A DNA stretch of 64,000 nucleotides from a virus (lineage: Duplodnaviria; Caudoviricetes): the IMG/VR virus record IMGVR_UViG_3300042542_006078. One strand, given 5' to 3'. A model generated the notes under the pieces. The model saw only the letters and a program-made list of their open reading frames with translations, made no database searches and had not been told where the DNA came from. Within the stretch, counting starts at the first letter, position 1; every line of letters begins with the position of its first letter. Position numbers and translations under genes: made by a program. This document shows, piece by piece, positions 24,290-35,914 of the stretch.

Positions 24290-24301
24290 TTTTGGGGCCT
24301 A

Positions 24302-24550
24302 TTATTTGAATCCAGTTGAAAATGAAACACTAAATACCTTATTAGTACCGCCAGCAGCACTTTGTTTTATAAACTGACAATCTTCGTATGCTGTTTGATA
24401 GATTGCAGGATATGGCAAATAAGCTCCATCGCTTCTGTCTGGAACACATACCTCGATCTTTTTATATGGCGGACACAAGAAAAGAGACTGCGGTTTAATA
24501 CAGCAATCCCTTAACTCTGGAGGAATGTCACAAGCATTTGTAATATCCAT
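24302..24550 (-). CDS. Small Cys-containing hypothetical protein upstream of the collagen genes
   Basis: 82 aa with 6 Cys; AAGGAAGG RBS-like sequence; co-directional with the collagen genes. Confidence 0.6.
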   Translation of the reverse strand: MDITNACDIPPELRDCCIKPQSLFLCPPYKKIEVCVPDRSDGAYLPYPAIYQTAYEDCQFIKQSAAGGTNKVFSVSFSTGFK

Positions 24551-24657
24551 AAAACCTTCCTTAACCGTTTCAAAAACGGATCTTTTTGAAATAGCAATAA
24601 TTGCATAAGCATCCTTGCCAGCACTTCCTTATCTATTTATTTATCAATGTAATATAT

Positions 24658-24951
24658 CTATTTTTTGGCTTCTTTTGATATTAATCTTATAATATCTTCC
24701 AGCGTACCATCTCTACTCATGATTTTGCCCTTAACAGAACTCTGGACATCATCACTTAAATTCTTGAATTCTCCCAAGGAATTCAAAGCATCAACTAAAT
24801 TGTCTGGTGGTTTCCACATTTTCAAAGAACTTGAAATGTTATAATCTTCCTTTTTTTTACCAGAATTTAATTTTCCAAGAATCAAGTCCTTGTAAAACTC
24901 GTAATCCTTCTGCTCGTCTTCAAACCAATTTTTGAAAAATAAATATTTCAT
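24658..24951 (-). CDS. Small hypothetical protein with capsid-targeting-like N-terminus
   Basis: Starts MKYLFFKNWFEDE. Confidence 0.6.
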   Translation of the reverse strand: MKYLFFKNWFEDEQKDYEFYKDLILGKLNSGKKKEDYNISSSLKMWKPPDNLVDALNSLGEFKNLSDDVQSSVKGKIMSRDGTLEDIIRLISKEAKK

Positions 24952-25000
24952 GATAAATCTTTTCTGCAATACAATTTACTGTTGCTGATATATAGATTAC

Positions 25001-25813
25001 ATGAACAGATTGTCTTTCAAAAAATGGCTTTTGAATGAAATGGCCAATTATGGCTTTGGTGATGCCAATAATCAAATTCTTGGTGGTACTGATGTCATGA
25101 AAGGAGATGGACTGTTCCAACACATAAAGCCAAACATCATAGTTAGTGAATTAATGCAAATGCCTCCTCTTGGACCTTTAGAAGCAACTAACCCAATAGA
25201 TGATGAAGTTCAATGGGGCAATGAAGTCGGCGCAATAAAGGTGATAATCACACCTCTTGGCTCAATGAGAGCATGTACAAAAAGAATGACAAAAGATCTT
25301 CAGGGAAACAAAACTTGGATTCTTGAGTCTGTTTATCCAATTAGCGACTACAAAGATGAAAATAAAGAAGTAGAAATTGCAAACAAAGTATTCGATGAAA
25401 TTGCCCGTATAACCAAAAGCCCCACAAATGGTCCTGATGGTGATTACGAAGACATTGAAAGATTGGCTCAAAAACTTTGGCACACAACTAAAAAGCAGCA
25501 TCCATCCTACATCATGTTTCCAACTCAACTGAGGAAACAAAAAGATAACTACTACAAACTTGTTTACGAGTTTCGTGGACAAGGAGTAGGATCGCCTTAT
25601 GGAGGCAAAACTGGAAGGGCAGAACAATTCGACATTGACTTGGTTTATTACCCGGAAAAAGGAATGATCAGGTGTTTTGGATATGACATTGAAAGCAGTT
25701 CAAGAGAGCGCAATTTTTATGTTCAGCCTTCTGAATGGGACGAATATTTCTCGCCAAAACAAGATGACAAATTAATTGTTGAAAATATTGTGAAACTCTT
25801 CTTGCAATACTGA
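25001..25813 (+). CDS. Hypothetical protein with capsid-targeting-like N-terminus
   Basis: 270 aa; starts MNRLSFKKWLLNE. Confidence 0.7.
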   Translation: MNRLSFKKWLLNEMANYGFGDANNQILGGTDVMKGDGLFQHIKPNIIVSELMQMPPLGPLEATNPIDDEVQWGNEVGAIKVIITPLGSMRACTKRMTKDLQGNKTWILESVYPISDYKDENKEVEIANKVFDEIARITKSPTNGPDGDYEDIERLAQKLWHTTKKQHPSYIMFPTQLRKQKDNYYKLVYEFRGQGVGSPYGGKTGRAEQFDIDLVYYPEKGMIRCFGYDIESSSRERNFYVQPSEWDEYFSPKQDDKLIVENIVKLFLQY

Positions 25814-25884
25814 AAATAAAAAACATATAATTTAATTGAACTTTTTTATAAGTCCTTCTCCCGATTACACAAGAGGGATTTTTT

Positions 25885-26826
25885 GTGCGTCATTTCCTCT
25901 CCATATCCGACTTGTCAAAAGATGAAATTGAATTAATTTTAGACATTGCAAACGAAATCGAAAGAAATTGGTCTTTTTGTCGCAACATGAACAACAAGTG
26001 CATAAGTAGTTTTTTTGCCGAGCCGTCAACAAGAACAAGATTTAGTTTTGAAAGAGCTATGCATTGGTTGGGTGGTCGTGTTATCACGGCTGCTGACGCT
26101 TCATCAAGCAGTAGCTTGACAAAAGGCGAAAGCTTGAAAGACACTTTCAGAACTCTTGGCCAATATTCCGATGCTATTGTAATGCGACACCCAGATCAAA
26201 AATGGCCTGAAATAGCAAGAAGTTATTCAAGAGTTCCTGTTATAAACGCTGGTAGTGGTTCTGGAGAACATCCAACACAAGCTCTTCTTGACCTTCACAC
26301 TATTAAACAAAAGTGGAATGACATTTCTGGACTCAAGGTTCTTCTCTGCGGCGATCTTAGAAATGGAAGGACAATTCACAGCCTTATTGAAATACTTCAT
26401 CTTTATAAATGTAACATTTTTTATTGTGCTGCGACCGATTATAAAAATTGTGACTTGTCTATACCAGAAAAATATTTAGAAAAAATTCCTTGCCGTAATG
26501 TTGAAATATCAGATGCCAATGATATTCTTCCTGAAATTGATGTCATTTATATGACAAGAATACAGAAAGAAAGGTTTAAGGGAGTTTGCGATAATCTTGA
26601 TTTTTTCAAAATAACCAAAGAAAATATTGGAAGAGTAAAGAAAAATGCGGCTATTCTTCATCCATTGCCTAGAAATGAGGAAATTAGTGAAGACATAGAT
26701 GATGATCCTCGTGCTGATTATCATGAAAGACAAGTAAGAAATGGTCTTTATATTCGCACGGCTTTGCTTAATTATCTTCTTTATCCAACTCCTATGCATA
26801 GGCCATCTTGTGATGGAATTAATTAA
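25885..26826 (+). CDS. pyrB: Aspartate carbamoyltransferase, catalytic chain
   Basis: FFAEPSTRTRFSFE, SL.KGESL.DT, INAGSG..EHPTQALLD, GDL..GRT.HS, YMTRIQKER, LHPLPR, Q..NG...R.ALL. Confidence 0.95.
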   Translation: MRHFLSISDLSKDEIELILDIANEIERNWSFCRNMNNKCISSFFAEPSTRTRFSFERAMHWLGGRVITAADASSSSSLTKGESLKDTFRTLGQYSDAIVMRHPDQKWPEIARSYSRVPVINAGSGSGEHPTQALLDLHTIKQKWNDISGLKVLLCGDLRNGRTIHSLIEILHLYKCNIFYCAATDYKNCDLSIPEKYLEKIPCRNVEISDANDILPEIDVIYMTRIQKERFKGVCDNLDFFKITKENIGRVKKNAAILHPLPRNEEISEDIDDDPRADYHERQVRNGLYIRTALLNYLLYPTPMHRPSCDGIN

Positions 26827-27486: not shown

Positions 27487-28311
27487 ATGATTGATATTCA
27501 GATTGACGAAGAAAAATTGAAATTTAATTTCATGTCTCCTTTATATGAATATTTTTTAGTATTTGATAACTATAAATATTATTGTTATAATAGACAAGAA
27601 TTAGATGAAAAATTAAAAAATAAAAATGTTATTACAAGATTGATTATTCACAATTCATATTGTGTGGCTTTATTTACAAATGCAGAACATTTTAATTGTG
27701 CAGAATTCCGTGATTTTTTGCAGGCTATTGTGAACAAAGTGCCTTTTTTCGCCGAATATGAACTTGTTGGTCTTAATCAAAACTTTGGGACAATTGAAGA
27801 ATATCTTCAAAATAAAATAACCAAGTTGGAAGAATTAGAATTTCTATATCATGGAACATCATCTTATTATGCTGATATTATTCTAAAAGAAGGAATTAAA
27901 CCGAGAAAACATACTAATGTTTCGGCTTCTTTCGCAGGAACAAATGAAGAAGGTAGCCCGAATTGCATTTATCTATGCACACATCCAAGATATGGATTGA
28001 AGAGGGCAGGAGCGGCAGCAATGAGAAAATCAAATGGAGAAAACACTCTTCTAAAAATAGACATTGCTGGTATTGATAAATCAAAATTAAAATGTTGCGA
28101 TCAAATAAATAAAAATGATATATCAATTGAAGAAAGTCTTTTGATAAGCAAAAATTTGCGTTATTTTGGAACAATTGAGCCAAATTATATTACAAATGAA
28201 GGCATTATTCCCTATAATCTTCTTAATATTAAGGCCATGCAATACTATGCCTCAAAAGAAAACAATGATCTAAATCGTGCAAGCACAGATTCATCGATGC
28301 AAGGCAAGTAA
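27487..28311 (+). CDS. Hypothetical protein with a C-terminal ART/Tpt1-like NAD-binding fold
   Basis: LYHGTS..Y...I..EGIKP, IYL, LLKID, Y.GTI.P. Confidence 0.5.
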   Translation: MIDIQIDEEKLKFNFMSPLYEYFLVFDNYKYYCYNRQELDEKLKNKNVITRLIIHNSYCVALFTNAEHFNCAEFRDFLQAIVNKVPFFAEYELVGLNQNFGTIEEYLQNKITKLEELEFLYHGTSSYYADIILKEGIKPRKHTNVSASFAGTNEEGSPNCIYLCTHPRYGLKRAGAAAMRKSNGENTLLKIDIAGIDKSKLKCCDQINKNDISIEESLLISKNLRYFGTIEPNYITNEGIIPYNLLNIKAMQYYASKENNDLNRASTDSSMQGK

Positions 28312-29004: not shown

Positions 29005-29892
29005 ATGAAAATTGCAATGTGCCCACTAGTAAGCAGAGATCTTCCAAAAGCTATCAGAGCAACCAATTCTTGTAGAAATCAATTTCCAACTGAACAATTT
29101 CAAGTTGAAACAGTTGCAATTGTTAACTCAAAGAATCAAGAATTCATAGATGAGTTCTGCTCATGGTGCGAATCTGAACAAGTAAAATATGTCATTACTG
29201 AATCAAATGGAACACCAAGCAGAGGAAAAAATAGCGTTCTTCAGTTTCTTAGAGACTCGGACTATGACGGAGTAAGCATGACAGATGGAGATGATTTAGT
29301 CTATCCAACTGGAGCTTTGCAAATTGAAAGACATCTTCTTCACCATCCAACCACAGATGTTTTGATAGTTAAGCCTTCTGATCAAGTTACAAACCATGAA
29401 TCATATGGAAGTGTTCAAATTAAAGAAGGAAACTATGCTGTTTGTTGGGGTATGAATATTGTTAAGTTGGGATATACTTATGGTCCCGGTAAAAGCGAAA
29501 TATTTAATTCAGGACATTTTGCAGCAAGAAATTTAGGAGGACATGTTTTTTATAGCAAGAAGGTTGCACAACTTGTTCAATATGATGAAGAACAATTGTT
29601 GGGAGAAGACTTGCTTTTAGAATTTAATCTTCTCAAGCTTCATCAAGAAAGAAAAATATGTTTTTGGTTAAGTTTTGCAAGTGATGTACAGATGCTAGAC
29701 AGAACTGAGCAAGAAAGTATTCAATATACAAAGAATGGAACAGATGGGGCTCAATCTTTTGAAAGGTTAATTCAAAAAGTGAGAGAGATATTGCCTGAAG
29801 ACAGAAGTTCATTTGATGAATTGCCCGTAGAGTTCCCAGAATTGTTATTTTCACATGGCGAAAAAATTGAATGGTTGAAGCAAGTTTTTTGA
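29005..29892 (+). CDS. GT-A fold glycosyltransferase-like protein
   Basis: SNGTPSRGKNSVL, MTDGDD (DxDD), GEDL. Start taken at ATG 29005. Confidence 0.6.
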   Translation: MKIAMCPLVSRDLPKAIRATNSCRNQFPTEQFQVETVAIVNSKNQEFIDEFCSWCESEQVKYVITESNGTPSRGKNSVLQFLRDSDYDGVSMTDGDDLVYPTGALQIERHLLHHPTTDVLIVKPSDQVTNHESYGSVQIKEGNYAVCWGMNIVKLGYTYGPGKSEIFNSGHFAARNLGGHVFYSKKVAQLVQYDEEQLLGEDLLLEFNLLKLHQERKICFWLSFASDVQMLDRTEQESIQYTKNGTDGAQSFERLIQKVREILPEDRSSFDELPVEFPELLFSHGEKIEWLKQVF

Positions 29893-29899
29893 AAATTGA

Positions 29900-29928
29900 T
29901 TGCAAAAAAGAATCTAAGTGATTACAAT
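29900..29928 (+). promoter_or_regulatory. Sigma70-type promoter reading into the non-coding structured region
   Basis: TTGCAA-17 nt-TACAAT. Confidence 0.6.
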
Positions 29929-29934
29929 AAGAAA

Positions 29935-30448
29935 TGGCTAAGGGTAATTCTCACTCATTCCGCTCACAAGGTGTTATGAGTTAAGCCCAAAGCAAAGACA
30001 GAAGAAGGTTTCGCACTTAAAGACTTTCATCGTGATTGTCGCCTTTAATGTCTTTGTTGTCAAACCTGCGAGGCCCTTACCAAGGGTGGGTCTTTGTAGT
30101 TGTTCTACAACGAATGCTTTAACGGGAAGCATTGTACTCGCAGCAGCAGAGGTCAAGCCGGATAGAAATGATGCTGACTCTCAAGAAAAACCCCTGTAGT
30201 TTGTTTTGCAAAAAGCAAATGAGAAATGGAAAATTCTTGAGCTATTCGGTTTTAGGTTTGCTGCAAATAAAAGTGCGCCATCTGACTCAATCCCAAGAAG
30301 TTATTGCTGGAGTAAATAGGTTTAGTAAACAAGAATATGGCTTAAACGCCAAAAAATTGCTCTACTAAACAAGTTTACTCAATATCTCACTTTTAATGTG
30401 ATATATACAGCAATAACCATTTGGGTCAGCATCCCGTTCTAGTTTTTG
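29935..30448 (+). ncRNA. Candidate large structured ncRNA (~510 nt), family unknown
   Basis: Many nested stems with G-U-compatible mismatches: 29991-30000/30049-58, 30067-72/30137-42, 30171-80/30423-32, 30180-87/30234-41, 30301-09/30408-16, 30310-16/30374-80, 30320-27/30363-70. Upstream promoter and a downstream T-tract. Confidence 0.6.
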
Positions 30449-30507
30449 ATTGTAAATAAAAAAAACAAATTACCTAAATTAACAAATTTTTGCATAATTT
30501 AACATGA

Positions 30508-30536
30508 TTGACCTAACTGCTTTTTTCGGCTATAAC
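30508..30536 (+). promoter_or_regulatory. Sigma70-type promoter for the polA operon
   Basis: TTGACC-17 nt-TATAAC. Confidence 0.6.
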
Positions 30537-30597
30537 CTGACGAAGAATTAGCCTTCACTCACAGAGTGACGGAAAATGGCCTACAAGCTGGTGATTC

Positions 30598-31935
30598 ATG
30601 TATTTTGACTCTTTGTCCAAGTTGCTCTGTCAAATCGAGCGTAAGCCCCTTTTCTTGCGATTTAATCCCACTCCTTTTGATTTCACGGACAAGGATTCAG
30701 TCAATGAGATGCAATTCTTTCTTCCTGATGGTGTCACATTTCAAATTTTGCTCAAGGATGAATCTTTGCCTTTGGTTTTGAGTATGTTGCAGTTGTCTGT
30801 TTTTTCTGGCGACAACAAAGTCTTCGCATGGGATTGGAAATCATTTATTTCACATGTTCTTGCAAAGACTGGCAAGTTATATTCTATTGAATCATCTGTT
30901 GTTGATCTTAAGATTTTAGAAAGTTACAACGGAATCAAGAAATCATGTCCTGAGACATTTGTTGAGTGTTTTAACAGAATAAAGTATTTGGTATCATCTG
31001 GTCTATGGAAAGACTGTGAAAATATTTACAAGAAGATTCATTTGCCTTTGATGACAAATGTCATTCCTTATTTGGAAACAGTAGGCATTCTTGACTTGAA
31101 TGCTGGCAAGAAGGTTCATGCTCATTATGAGATTGATGGTCAGGAGAATGGCAGATTAAGATGTCACAATGCTTTTAAGAATGGTTTTGTGCCACATGCA
31201 ATGGGATCGGATATCAAGGAGAAGTTGAAGCCTGTCGGCTATGATTCTCTTTTCATGGCTTTTGATTACAAGGGCATGGAAGCGTTTGTTCTTGCCTATT
31301 TGAGCAAAGACGAAAGGTTGATGAGTTTTTGTCAGGAAGAGGACATTTATGCTTCTTTGGCAAAGTCATTATTTGGATCGAATTCTGAAAAAATTGATCG
31401 TGAATTGGTGAAAAAATGTTTTTTGCCGGTTATATATGGACAGTCGGCCCGTTCTCTTTCTTTGCGTTGCGGAATGGCTGCTGATGTCGCAGAAGGCGTT
31501 GTGGAACGAATTAGTTCTTTGTTCAATACTGCGCTTTCATTCGTTGCTGATTGTGAAGAAAAAGTAAAACAAAATGGATTTGCCAAAGATGTTTTTGGTA
31601 AAAGAAGAAACAACTTTGAGTTAGGCAAGGAATATTTAGCCAGAAACTTTGCTGTGCAATCACCCGCATCAACGATATGTCTTGAGAAACTTATCAATCT
31701 TCATATTTCCATACAAAACTTAAATCAAAGCTTGAAGGATAAGGCTCAAATTTCTTATACTGTTCATGACGGTTATGTTTTGTATGTTACGAAGGATAAT
31801 TGGAAACAAGTTTACAAGAGAAGTATGGAAGCATTGTGCGGAGAATCCGAGCTTTGTCCCGGTCTGCGACTGAAGGTTTCATGTCGTGGAGGGAGAAACC
31901 TGAATGACCTGAAAATGATTAAAGATCGAAAGTGA
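30598..31935 (+). CDS. polA: Family A DNA polymerase (short: polymerase domain plus degenerate exonuclease-like region)
   Basis: NGRL, motif A FDYKGMEAFVLAYLSKD, motif B RELVKKCFLPVIYG, ARNFAVQSPAS, motif C TVHDG. Confidence 0.85.
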   Translation: MYFDSLSKLLCQIERKPLFLRFNPTPFDFTDKDSVNEMQFFLPDGVTFQILLKDESLPLVLSMLQLSVFSGDNKVFAWDWKSFISHVLAKTGKLYSIESSVVDLKILESYNGIKKSCPETFVECFNRIKYLVSSGLWKDCENIYKKIHLPLMTNVIPYLETVGILDLNAGKKVHAHYEIDGQENGRLRCHNAFKNGFVPHAMGSDIKEKLKPVGYDSLFMAFDYKGMEAFVLAYLSKDERLMSFCQEEDIYASLAKSLFGSNSEKIDRELVKKCFLPVIYGQSARSLSLRCGMAADVAEGVVERISSLFNTALSFVADCEEKVKQNGFAKDVFGKRRNNFELGKEYLARNFAVQSPASTICLEKLINLHISIQNLNQSLKDKAQISYTVHDGYVLYVTKDNWKQVYKRSMEALCGESELCPGLRLKVSCRGGRNLNDLKMIKDRK

Positions 31936-32495
31936 AGGAAAAAATGATTGAGATTGTTCACAATTTTCCGATAACAGAAGAAGAATTTTTGGACCTTGAC
32001 AAGAAATTTTCAAAGCTTTGCTGGCATGCTGCTCACGAATTGAAGAAGAAAAACACAAACAATAATTTCATTGATGATCCTGAGGACATTAAACAAGAAT
32101 TACAAATGAGCATGCTTCGTGCCGGAAGCTATTACAAGAGACAGGTTTATATTGAGAAGTGTCTTGATATTGCTAAGAAGTTCGTCGAGGACAAATTAAT
32201 TTTGAAGGTTTTATTGGAACTGGAAAATCTTTGGGAAAATAGGACTAGGCATGGTGCCAATAGGCAAAAGTATGGTGCTTTCCAAGAGAATCTTCTTGAA
32301 AAGATTATTCGTAATTTTGTGCCGAAGGAAAATAGGCCAAACAAGAATGCGCCTTTGAAAATGGACAGCAAGTTTGTGACTTATTGCAAGGCCATCGTAT
32401 GGAATGGCCAGAAATCGATGGGCAAGAAGATCACTAGGGAAAAATCAATTCGTAGTGGTATGGTTTCTTTGAGCGAGTTTGAATTTTTGCATTGA
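31932..32495 (+). CDS. Hypothetical protein, weakly sigma-factor-like
   Basis: DDPEDIKQELQMSMLRA resembles sigma region 2 (D.ED..QE); F.TYC..IVWN. Confidence 0.35.
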   Translation: MKEKMIEIVHNFPITEEEFLDLDKKFSKLCWHAAHELKKKNTNNNFIDDPEDIKQELQMSMLRAGSYYKRQVYIEKCLDIAKKFVEDKLILKVLLELENLWENRTRHGANRQKYGAFQENLLEKIIRNFVPKENRPNKNAPLKMDSKFVTYCKAIVWNGQKSMGKKITREKSIRSGMVSLSEFEFLH

Positions 32496-34983: not shown

Positions 34984-35505
34984 ATGTCTGAATCCACTAT
35001 ACGCTGGCTTCGTCAAAGTGACTTAGAACAAATAGTAGAGATTGAAGAACAGACATTTCCCCATCCTTGGGATATGCAAGATTTTGAAATTTGTCTTAGA
35101 AAGAAAAATGCATTTGGAGTTGTGCAGATTCTTGATGAAAAAGTCATAGGTTATATGATTTTTCAATGCACATCCAAGTCATATAACATACTCAGCATTG
35201 CCGTTGATCCAAAACATCAAAAATGTGGAAATGGCAGGAAAATGATTGAATATGTTAAAAATAAAATAAGAGCATCAACTGAAGGTCCAAAAAATCAAAT
35301 TATTTTGATTGTAAGTGATCAAAACCTTGTTTGTCATAAATTCTTGAAGTCTCTTGATTTTGTTGCCACTAAAATAAACAAAGACTATTTTGGACCAGAT
35401 CATGATGCTTATCATTTTGTCATGGACATGAGAGATCAGAAGAAGATTAAAGTAAAAAAAAAGGGAAGGACTGGTAAGGTAAAAGATGTCGATAAAATGG
35501 AATAA
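34984..35505 (+). CDS. GNAT acetyltransferase (RimI-like)
   Basis: IE.QTFPHPW, VIGYM, ILSIAVDPKHQKCGNGRKM, FLKSLDF, YF. Confidence 0.8.
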   Translation: MSESTIRWLRQSDLEQIVEIEEQTFPHPWDMQDFEICLRKKNAFGVVQILDEKVIGYMIFQCTSKSYNILSIAVDPKHQKCGNGRKMIEYVKNKIRASTEGPKNQIILIVSDQNLVCHKFLKSLDFVATKINKDYFGPDHDAYHFVMDMRDQKKIKVKKKGRTGKVKDVDKME

Positions 35506-35914
35506 GTGGTTTTTGGGTCTAGCCGAATACATTTCGACAGCATCTAAAGACCCAAGCACCAAGGTTGGAGCGGTAATTGTCGATGATGATAGAAGAGTTG
35601 TTTCAACTGGTTACAATGGCTTTCCAAGAGGCATACAGGACACCGAAGAAAGGCTCAACAACCGTGATTTGAAATATTCCATTATTGTTCATGCTGAGAG
35701 GAATGCTCTTCTTTTCGCAAGGGGATCAGTCAAGGGATGCACAATATATACTTATCCAATGATGCCATGTTCAGTTTGTGCTTCGATGATAATTCAATCT
35801 GGAATCAAGAAGGTAGTTTCTCCAAATAGCGACAATCCAAGATGGAAGGATCATATAGAGCTTTCTTTGGTTCTTTTTAGGGAAGCGGGAGTCGAAGTGG
35901 AATTCGTTGACTAA
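35486..35914 (+). CDS. dCMP deaminase
   Basis: SKDPSTKVGAVIV, TGYNGFP.G, HAERNA, PCSVCA..IIQSGI. Confidence 0.92.
   Translation: MSIKWNKWFLGLAEYISTASKDPSTKVGAVIVDDDRRVVSTGYNGFPRGIQDTEERLNNRDLKYSIIVHAERNALLFARGSVKGCTIYTYPMMPCSVCASMIIQSGIKKVVSPNSDNPRWKDHIELSLVLFREAGVEVEFVD

Follow-up and report, generated by a model that had tools for sequence, protein, structure and literature searches.

An apparently uncatalogued family of pseudoknotted RNAs upstream of a compact Pol I-like polymerase gene in huge freshwater phages

Comparably large RNAs with many conserved tertiary contacts are rare, the known examples being ribosomal RNA, RNase P RNA, group I and group II introns, tmRNA, OLE, GOLLD, ROOL, raiA, and HEARO, and every earlier class of this kind brought new RNA biology. 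Among those borne by phages, GOLLD and ROOL have been reported, from cryo-EM, to form RNA-only homo-oligomers (bioRxiv 10.1101/2024.12.08.627333); their genes are located near tRNAs. ColE1 RNA II is a promoter-driven, structured pre-primer of ~500-550 nt with its 3' end at an A/T-rich site; it consists of successive stem-loops, is not known to have conserved pseudoknots, and is controlled by the antisense RNA I. The phi29 pRNA is an early phage RNA of 120-174 nt that acts in the packaging motor through intermolecular pairing; the machine cannot assemble without its loop-loop pairing, which shows covariation across related phages. HK022 put and Bacillus subtilis EAR are cis-acting read-through RNAs of 70-120 nt with two or three hairpins. 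A 2023 survey of IMG/VR (PMC10690425) reported 8,495 short RNA candidates (29-151 nt), and fragments of the RNA discussed here may be among them, a possibility that we have not excluded.

The RNA in this report lies in a 64,000-nt stretch of phage DNA, the window, to which all coordinates refer; features are on the + strand unless stated otherwise. Positions 29935-30437 very likely encode a member of a structured-RNA family that has not been catalogued, and the evidence for both the family and its fold is strong. The family comprises ~30 distinct phage and metagenome contigs, and the RNA is always on the same strand as, and 350-700 nt upstream of, a gene for a compact Pol I-like polymerase. 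It is known so far only from one clade of huge freshwater phages, and 13 studies contributed the lake and freshwater runs in which the stretch was detected. The preliminary description had proposed a large promoter-driven phage noncoding RNA, possibly of a new class, and this held on the basis of the ~30 contigs, strong covariation, the lack of a coding frame, the lack of an Rfam match, and RNA contigs in two metatranscriptomes.

The gap that holds the RNA is free of open reading frames (29893-30597), with stops throughout all six frames, and is bounded on the left by a 322-amino-acid ORF of unknown family (ending at 29892) and on the right by the polymerase ATG (30598). The non-coding gap described before the DNA polymerase was thus real; that it is the longest in the window is not firmly established, since the region at 46.2-47.5 kb holds only small ORFs. 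For the 116-nt RNA core, every frame contains stops in 18-19 of the 25 relatives' sequences, and across these 25 sequences no reading frame is conserved in the RNA region. The minimum free energy of the + strand is -162 kcal/mol, and its dinucleotide shuffles average -124 ± 6.8 (z = -5.64); for the - strand, which also beats its shuffles, z = -4.19. The core has 36 G-U pairs and only 13 A-C pairs, a bias that favors the + strand, as had been proposed from mismatches that read as G-U on that strand.

No family in Rfam 15 reached its gathering score anywhere in the 64-kb window, and a search of 29700-30700 at E values up to 10 gave only two chance snoRNA-like rows. The ROOL and GOLLD models did not match even at E = 10, and no similarity was found to the ribozyme models in Rfam, to the group I and II intron models (RF00028, RF00029, group-II-D1D4), or to those for RNase P RNA and tmRNA; ARAGORN reported neither tRNA nor tmRNA in the window. 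A blastn comparison of the stretch to GenBank phages gave no match, and the literature searched nowhere describes this RNA family. Several known classes could be rejected as identities for the RNA. A self-splicing group I or II intron was dismissed for want of a model match and of exon halves, with upstream neighbors that vary and often lie on the opposite strand and a promoter that precedes the RNA. RNase P RNA and tmRNA were dismissed because neither Rfam nor ARAGORN matched, and the put/EAR class because of the length of the RNA (380-650 nt) and the intervening promoter P2 described below.

Relatives were gathered by a search with the polymerase, which yielded 8 IMG/VR and 32 metagenome loci. 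Each of the first eight has an ORF-free gap of 400-700 nt preceding the polymerase gene, and a profile of the central part of the RNA matched 31 loci. A covariance model of the 116-nt core, which we call R1, matched 33 loci representing 25 distinct sequences, all on the + strand and 350-700 nt before the polymerase gene; the window itself scores 100.8 bits (E = 1.5e-18). In a truncated locus (L024) and a divergent one (L033), the 3' motifs of the family were recognized by eye. We also scanned with a DNA pattern built from the RNA that ignored the polymerase. The scan returned at least 233 loci (113 viral and 120 from bacterial genomes), and the true core was present in 10 of the 113 viral loci and in none of the 120 bacterial-genome loci, the remainder being mostly chance matches. 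All 10 of these members have the polymerase gene 350-500 nt downstream on the same strand, followed by genes for the 187-amino-acid protein and the helicase discussed below where the contig is long enough. As both pattern scans were partial, they do not show that the RNA is absent from bacterial genomes. One copy of the RNA was found in each of four records of 381, 189, 98, and 45 kb.

The core (30064-30153) is a four-way junction assigned from R1 and covariation. In an alignment fitted to the model, 90% of the cells at paired columns are paired, compared to 72% with shuffled partners and 31-42% with partners slid by one to three columns, and in 19 of 23 pairs both partners have changed. The outermost pairing, ACCU with AGGU (30064-67/30150-53), shows a strict exchange of C-G to U-A (15 versus 10 sequences). 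Inside it are the closing stem (30068-72/30137-41), hairpin H1 (30073-78/30082-87), the nearly invariant single strand GUCUUUGUA (30090-98), the short and variable hairpin H2 (30099-102/30108-111), and hairpin H3 (30113-19/30127-33), whose loop in the family is ACGRGA. MAFFT and RNAalifold applied to the raw sequences missed most helices because of small indels, and they were replaced by the covariance model and anchor-based scripts.

On the 5' side of the core, hairpin HP-b (29991-30058) has an outer stem (29991-30000/30049-58) and an inner AAGG/CCTT stem that present the loop CGCACUU (30012-18). The segment before it (29935-29990) is divergent in the window phage and in L004, being without the ACUUGUC box and the CUCUCU-loop hairpin of the family; it can form a local hairpin, ACTCAT/ATGAGT (29953-58/29976-81), and an alternative pairing of CUCAUU with AAUGAG near 30219 is possible.

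On the 3' side, the strand that follows AGGU pairs with the strand that precedes UUUAGG to form helix P-j (30158-65/30242-49; segment 30158-30249), which was supported by permutation (score of 427 compared to 251 ± 18 for shuffled partners, with 21 duplex types). P-j encloses a hairpin with a large loop (30180-87/30234-41) and is followed by the conserved junction UUUUAGG (30250-56). The variable 3' domain (30278-30422), assigned from covariation in 7 sequences and from comparison of the window and L004 by eye, consists of a base helix (30301-09/30408-16), a long hairpin with the conserved loop UUAAAC (30310-16/30374-80, 30320-27/30363-70, and 30338-41/30348-51), and a second hairpin (30382-90/30398-406). 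In the long hairpin, both positions vary among the 7 sequences in 15 of 23 consensus pairs. The nearly invariant unpaired strands of the RNA are GUCUUUGUA, AAAAC, UUUAGG, and the loop UUAAAC. One relative (L013:1700-1800) has a tandem duplication of ~50 nt in this domain, including the UUAAA-loop hairpin, which may be real or an assembly artifact.

Five long-range pairings appear to draw both ends of the RNA and its core together into a compact pseudoknotted fold, an arrangement that the covariation makes very likely. They connect the 5' end with an internal loop, the 5' hairpin loop with the GUAC box, X with X', the two strands of P-D, and the H3 loop with the 3' end. For each test, anchors were set by sequence motifs only and never by the pairing in question, and the partner from the same locus was compared to partners from other loci in 10,000 permutations. 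The permutations ignore sequence relatedness, yet each helix tested in this way is represented by 15-21 duplex types. The 3' strand in L020, L026, and L025 was assigned by hand to a second candidate.

Among these contacts, PK-A pairs ACGGG in the H3 loop (30122-26) with CCCGU (30433-37), which lies directly after the last helix. Its central four pairs are formed in all 25 sequences, in the classes CGGG/CCCG (6), CGAG/CUCG (12), CAGG/CCUG (1), and CAAG/CUUG (6), and none of the 10,000 permutations was as good. PK-B pairs the HP-b loop (30012-18) with the box AAGUGCG (30271-77; the 'AAGUACAC' box), with a score of 363 compared to 299 ± 13 and no permutation of 10,000 as good. In the window it is GCAC/GUGC and in most relatives GUAC/GUAC; other variants are GUGC/GCAC, GAUACC/GGUAUC, GUAUC/GAUAC, and GUACCC/GGGUAC. 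Pairing within one molecule and pairing between molecules are both possible, the non-palindromic variants fitting an intramolecular contact equally well. P-D pairs AUGCCGAC (30170/30171-80) with GUCGGCAU (30423-32), scoring 405 compared to 313 ± 17 (0 of 10,000), and because its 5' strand (30170-80) lies inside P-j, P-D is itself a pseudoknot. X/X' (PK-C) joins X, GCAGCAGA (30143-50), which follows the closing stem, to X', UUUGCUGC (30257-64), which follows UUUAGG. It rests on partner-swap scores, with no permutation test: the mean is 13.5 for a locus's own partner and ~7 for those of other loci, with ~20 different duplexes at the same positions. In PK-E, a CUUGUC box close to the 5' end pairs with the loop GACAAG ~250 nt downstream (301 compared to 261 ± 11 in 21 other loci); this contact is uncertain in the window, where the 5' segment is divergent. 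The window otherwise fits the family, with R1, PK-A, PK-B, X/X', P-j, and P-D all present between 30012 and 30437.

These results allow the helices proposed from sequence alone to be sorted. TGCGAG/CTCGCA, CCCTT/AAGGG, AATGCTT/AAGCATT, ATGCTGACTC/GGGTCAGCAT, GAGTAAA/TTTACTC, GTTTAGTA/TACTAAAC, and TGGC/GCCA held by comparison, and support for CTCAAGAA/TTCTTGAG, TTATTGCTG/CAGCAATAA, and AGCAAAGACA/TGTCTTTGTT comes from sequence inspection only. TTGTAG/CTACAA failed because relatives keep GTTG/CAAC (30099-102/30108-111) after the conserved single strand GUCUUUGUA. TAGAA/TTCTA also failed, since it competes with the covarying CCGGATAG/CTATTCGG of P-j and with ACGGG/CCCGT of PK-A. The division into three separate domains was too simple, as the domains are interlocked by the pseudoknots. 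The central claim of a functional RNA came through the shuffle comparison (z = -5.64, +), the negative Rfam search, the collection of homologs, the finding of covariation, and the absence of a conserved ORF.

Promoter P1 (29900-29928) consists of a -35 element, TTGCAA (29900-05), a 17-nt spacer, and a -10 element, TACAAT (29923-28), from which the RNA is predicted to start near 29935; 17 of 25 loci have a sigma-70-like promoter (score of ≥9/12) at 77-147 nt ahead of the core. The last demonstrated position of the fold in the window is 30437, and the implied RNA length is ~500 nt there and ~380-650 nt across loci. The fold is followed by an A/T-rich tail and spacer (30438-30507), with 83% A+T over its first 60 nt in the window and 60-88% A+T over the corresponding 60 nt across loci. 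This P1 and the T-run (30443-47) had both been noted beforehand, and both held; no conserved terminator hairpin was found after the RNA across loci. A second promoter, P2 (30508-36; segment 30508-30600), with TTGACC (30508-13), a 17-nt spacer, and TATAAC (30531-36), had been proposed as the polymerase's own. It held in the window and, by a simple scan, in about half of the relatives: 16 of 25 loci gave a promoter-like site directly before the polymerase start, with scores of ≥9/12 in 10, and more such sites were seen by eye. Between the 3' end of the fold and the polymerase start, most loci have ~95-120 nt, the full range being 57-234.

The tail carries a semi-conserved motif, AUUGUAAA (30449-56), and a similar AUUGUAAAGCAGAAUUU-like motif is frequent in relatives. 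A longer form, AUUGUAAA(G/U)CAGAAUUU, is seen at 30449-30465 in the window and in relatives, 10-15 nt past the fold. In many loci the tail motif has complementarity to the strand GUCUUUGUA of the core; in L034, for example, UAAGAC stands opposite GUCUUA. Partner-shuffling of this pairing gave no excess (241 versus 243), since GUCUUUGUA hardly varies. In L034, CAGACTAAT(A/C) is also repeated in tandem four or five times between the predicted promoter and the conserved 5' box (L034:1440-1500); these repeats occur at that locus only and are possibly iterons or operators.

Two lake metatranscriptomes from different studies each contain a single contig that matches the window exactly, one at 29975-30194 and the other at 29974-30178, and no other contig within 28000-33000. 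We regard these contigs as weak evidence for a stable RNA, because they show neither ends nor strand. RNA runs X22 and X23 gave no match to the stretch, an absence that carries no weight.

A conserved replication module opens with the RNA and continues with the genes for the compact Klenow-like polymerase, a conserved 187-amino-acid protein, and a DnaB-like helicase; the RNA also heads a long array of co-oriented genes. Its upstream neighbors differ from locus to locus and frequently lie on the opposite strand, but its linkage to the polymerase is invariant over polymerase identities of 37-63%. The polymerase gene (30598-31935) encodes 445 amino acids that match Pfam DNA_pol_A (E = 5e-30). A predicted model (pLDDT of 85) superposes on KlenTaq and the Bst large fragment with Z of ~30 and an rmsd of ~3.0-3.2 Å over 390-413 residues aligned out of 538-581, and we therefore describe it as a compact Klenow-like enzyme (445 residues compared to ~540-580). 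Its N terminus may be a small exonuclease-like domain with FDFTD in place of DxE, a possibility suggested by predicted secondary structure and the motif. The polymerase evolves fastest in the module (identities of 33-63%, compared to 66-82% for the helicase and 55-79% for the 187-amino-acid protein). The last of these (31932-32495) is basic and all-helical, always follows the polymerase, and is conserved at 55-79% with LR756511 included; Pfam, PDB-sequence, and Foldseek searches gave no match except weak rows to chains of a Thermus thermophilus transcription initiation complex. Genes for an aspartate/ornithine carbamoyltransferase (25885-26826; E = 4e-47), a GNAT acetyltransferase (34984-35505), and a dCMP deaminase (35486-35914) flank the module, and a 274-amino-acid protein (27487-28311) has a sub-threshold match to Tpt1/KptA RNA 2'-phosphotransferase (E = 0.007, 16.8 bits).

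The sole GenBank relative of the polymerase is that of the huge phage LR756511 (33% identity), which is without the RNA. This 595-kb genome, the only RNA-less relative searched whole, has no R1 match anywhere. In LR756511, L030, and L040, the polymerase and the 187-amino-acid protein are kept and a gene abuts the polymerase at the usual place of the RNA, and so this type of polymerase does not need the RNA beside it. The relatives are huge phages; one record spans 381 kb and is estimated to be 79% complete. A single family A polymerase and a Pol III alpha homolog split into two ORFs are present in each long record, and no family B polymerase (PolB) was found in these records. The split ORFs, of ~470 and ~910 amino acids, are 4-13 kb apart (G001:C1:126583-126900 and 136233-136727; likewise in G002 and G003). 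RNase H and flap/5'-3' exonuclease families were not found in the three phage records, which are incomplete. In four long records, persistent positive GC skew and the start of + strand genes lie 0-4 kb from the RNA; the skew minimum coincides with the RNA in G003, as does a local minimum in G001. The window has its cumulative minimum and its switch from - to + genes at 24290-26000, ~4-5 kb upstream of the RNA. Since the switch tracks gene orientation, it is not independent evidence of an origin.

The function of the RNA can only be inferred, and we rank the candidate roles as replication initiation, a self-contained particle, a cis-acting leader, and a ribozyme, in that order. Our best guess, offered with rather more doubt than confidence, is that the RNA acts with the Pol I-like enzyme in the initiation of replication. 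Host RNA polymerase would transcribe it early, and the compact fold would position its 3' tail over the A/T-rich stretch downstream or recruit the Pol I-like enzyme there; that enzyme would then start rightward synthesis, to be taken over by the phage Pol III-type polymerase, in a scheme that would resemble ColE1 RNA II with Pol I. In favor are the polymerase 350-500 nt downstream in all 10 members retrieved by pattern only, the split Pol III alpha without PolB, as in replication started by Pol I and continued by Pol III, the A/T-rich stretch (60-88%) after the RNA, and the GC skew and + genes that start 0-4 kb away. Against it, the RNA-DNA hybrid, the primer end, and the origin have no experimental or read-level support; the proposal that the RNA is an R-loop-forming origin transcript is neither shown nor excluded, as the context is compatible and the compact fold does not need it. 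A fold that fixes both ends would be less usual for a primer that must pair with DNA than for a ribozyme, an RNP scaffold, or a self-contained particle, and no G-rich tract that might nucleate a hybrid is evident past the RNA. RNase H and flap nuclease were not found in the three incomplete phage records, the skew switch in the window lies ~4-5 kb upstream and follows gene orientation, and LR756511, L030, and L040 keep the polymerase and the 187-amino-acid protein without the RNA beside them. That last observation counts in favor of the next possibility, which we consider nearly as likely, a stable self-contained particle of the GOLLD/ROOL kind that is unrelated to replication and located here merely by conserved gene order. 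A compact fold with multiple pseudoknots and both ends tied in would suit such a particle, as would the presence of the RNA core alone in two metatranscriptomes, which a stable, abundant RNA would give. The loop and the box are the palindrome GUAC in most members, and homo-oligomers are conceivable if their pairing is intermolecular. However, the non-palindromic GCAC/GUGC and GAUAC/GUAUC fit intramolecular pairing equally well, the linkage to the polymerase is invariant (37-63% identity) though the upstream neighbors vary, and there is no similarity to ROOL or GOLLD.

It is unlikely that the RNA is a cis-acting leader of the replication operon, in which P1 transcripts would run into the polymerase gene and the fold would alter downstream transcription or translation, whether by terminator read-through, as in HK022 put and B. 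subtilis EAR, or by sensing a ligand or protein. The absence of a conserved terminator between the RNA and the polymerase gene, the ~95-120-nt spacing in most loci, and the position at the head of a long co-oriented array would fit; the promoter-like site that intervenes in 16 of 25 loci, in some leaving almost leaderless transcripts, does not, and the size and five long-range contacts are far above those of put (~70 nt) and EAR (~120 nt). The RNA contigs also stop short of the polymerase gene, a weak point against a leader. We consider a new ribozyme, self-processing or acting on other nucleic acid, very unlikely: the size and pseudoknot density are comparable to those of RNase P RNA and group I introns, and the strands GUCUUUGUA, AAAAC, and UUUAGG and the loop UUAAAC are nearly invariant though unpaired, but there is no ribozyme model match, exon context, or recognized cleavage-site signature. 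A DNA-level element (origin hairpins or protein-binding sites) or chance structure in place of a functional RNA is all but excluded. The - strand does beat its shuffles (z = -4.2), but the G-U excess (36 versus 13) points to the + strand, the loop-to-strand pseudoknots show compensatory changes, a promoter in the + orientation is conserved, and RNA contigs exist.

A bolder form of the replication reading, in which the RNA is a catalytic or a templating or priming partner of the fast-evolving Pol I-like enzyme, or else a natural ribozyme of a new class, is very improbable, although it cannot be ruled out. If true, the partnership would constitute an RNA-protein machine for replication initiation in huge phages, built on a family A polymerase and functionally akin to the RNA-polymerase pairs of retrons or telomerase. 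Apart from any such role, an RNA defined by both ends, ~ten helices, and five long-range contacts is ready for direct structural and binding work, and its fixed spot at the head of the replication module, in phages with both Pol I-like and Pol III-like polymerases, provides a concrete hypothesis for how the replication of giant genomes starts.

Large, ornate phage RNAs of unexplained function have precedents; to the extent of Rfam 15 and the literature searched, the family and fold described here do not. Compared to phi29 pRNA, the polymerase-upstream RNA belongs to a replication context and not to packaging. It resembles put and EAR in lying directly after an early host-type promoter and heading a long operon, but it is 4-6 times larger (380-650 nt) and is followed by a second promoter, P2, before the polymerase gene. 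Its likeness to ColE1 RNA II is closer, in that a Pol I-type enzyme is at hand and a Pol III-type polymerase could take over, and the features of a ColE1-type pre-primer (promoter-driven, several hundred nucleotides, an A/T-rich end, and a Pol I-type polymerase) are met. It differs in its five long-range contacts and in having no evident conserved antisense promoter; the lone promoter-like site noted on the - strand of the window (30063-30035) lies in sequence that the relatives do not share, and hybrid formation remains hypothetical. GOLLD (RF01998) and ROOL (RF03087) are like it in being phage-borne, noncoding, and several hundred nucleotides long, with many helices and pseudoknots and an unexplained function, and the polymerase-upstream RNA is set apart from both by a different helix plan and by its fixed position before the polymerase gene.
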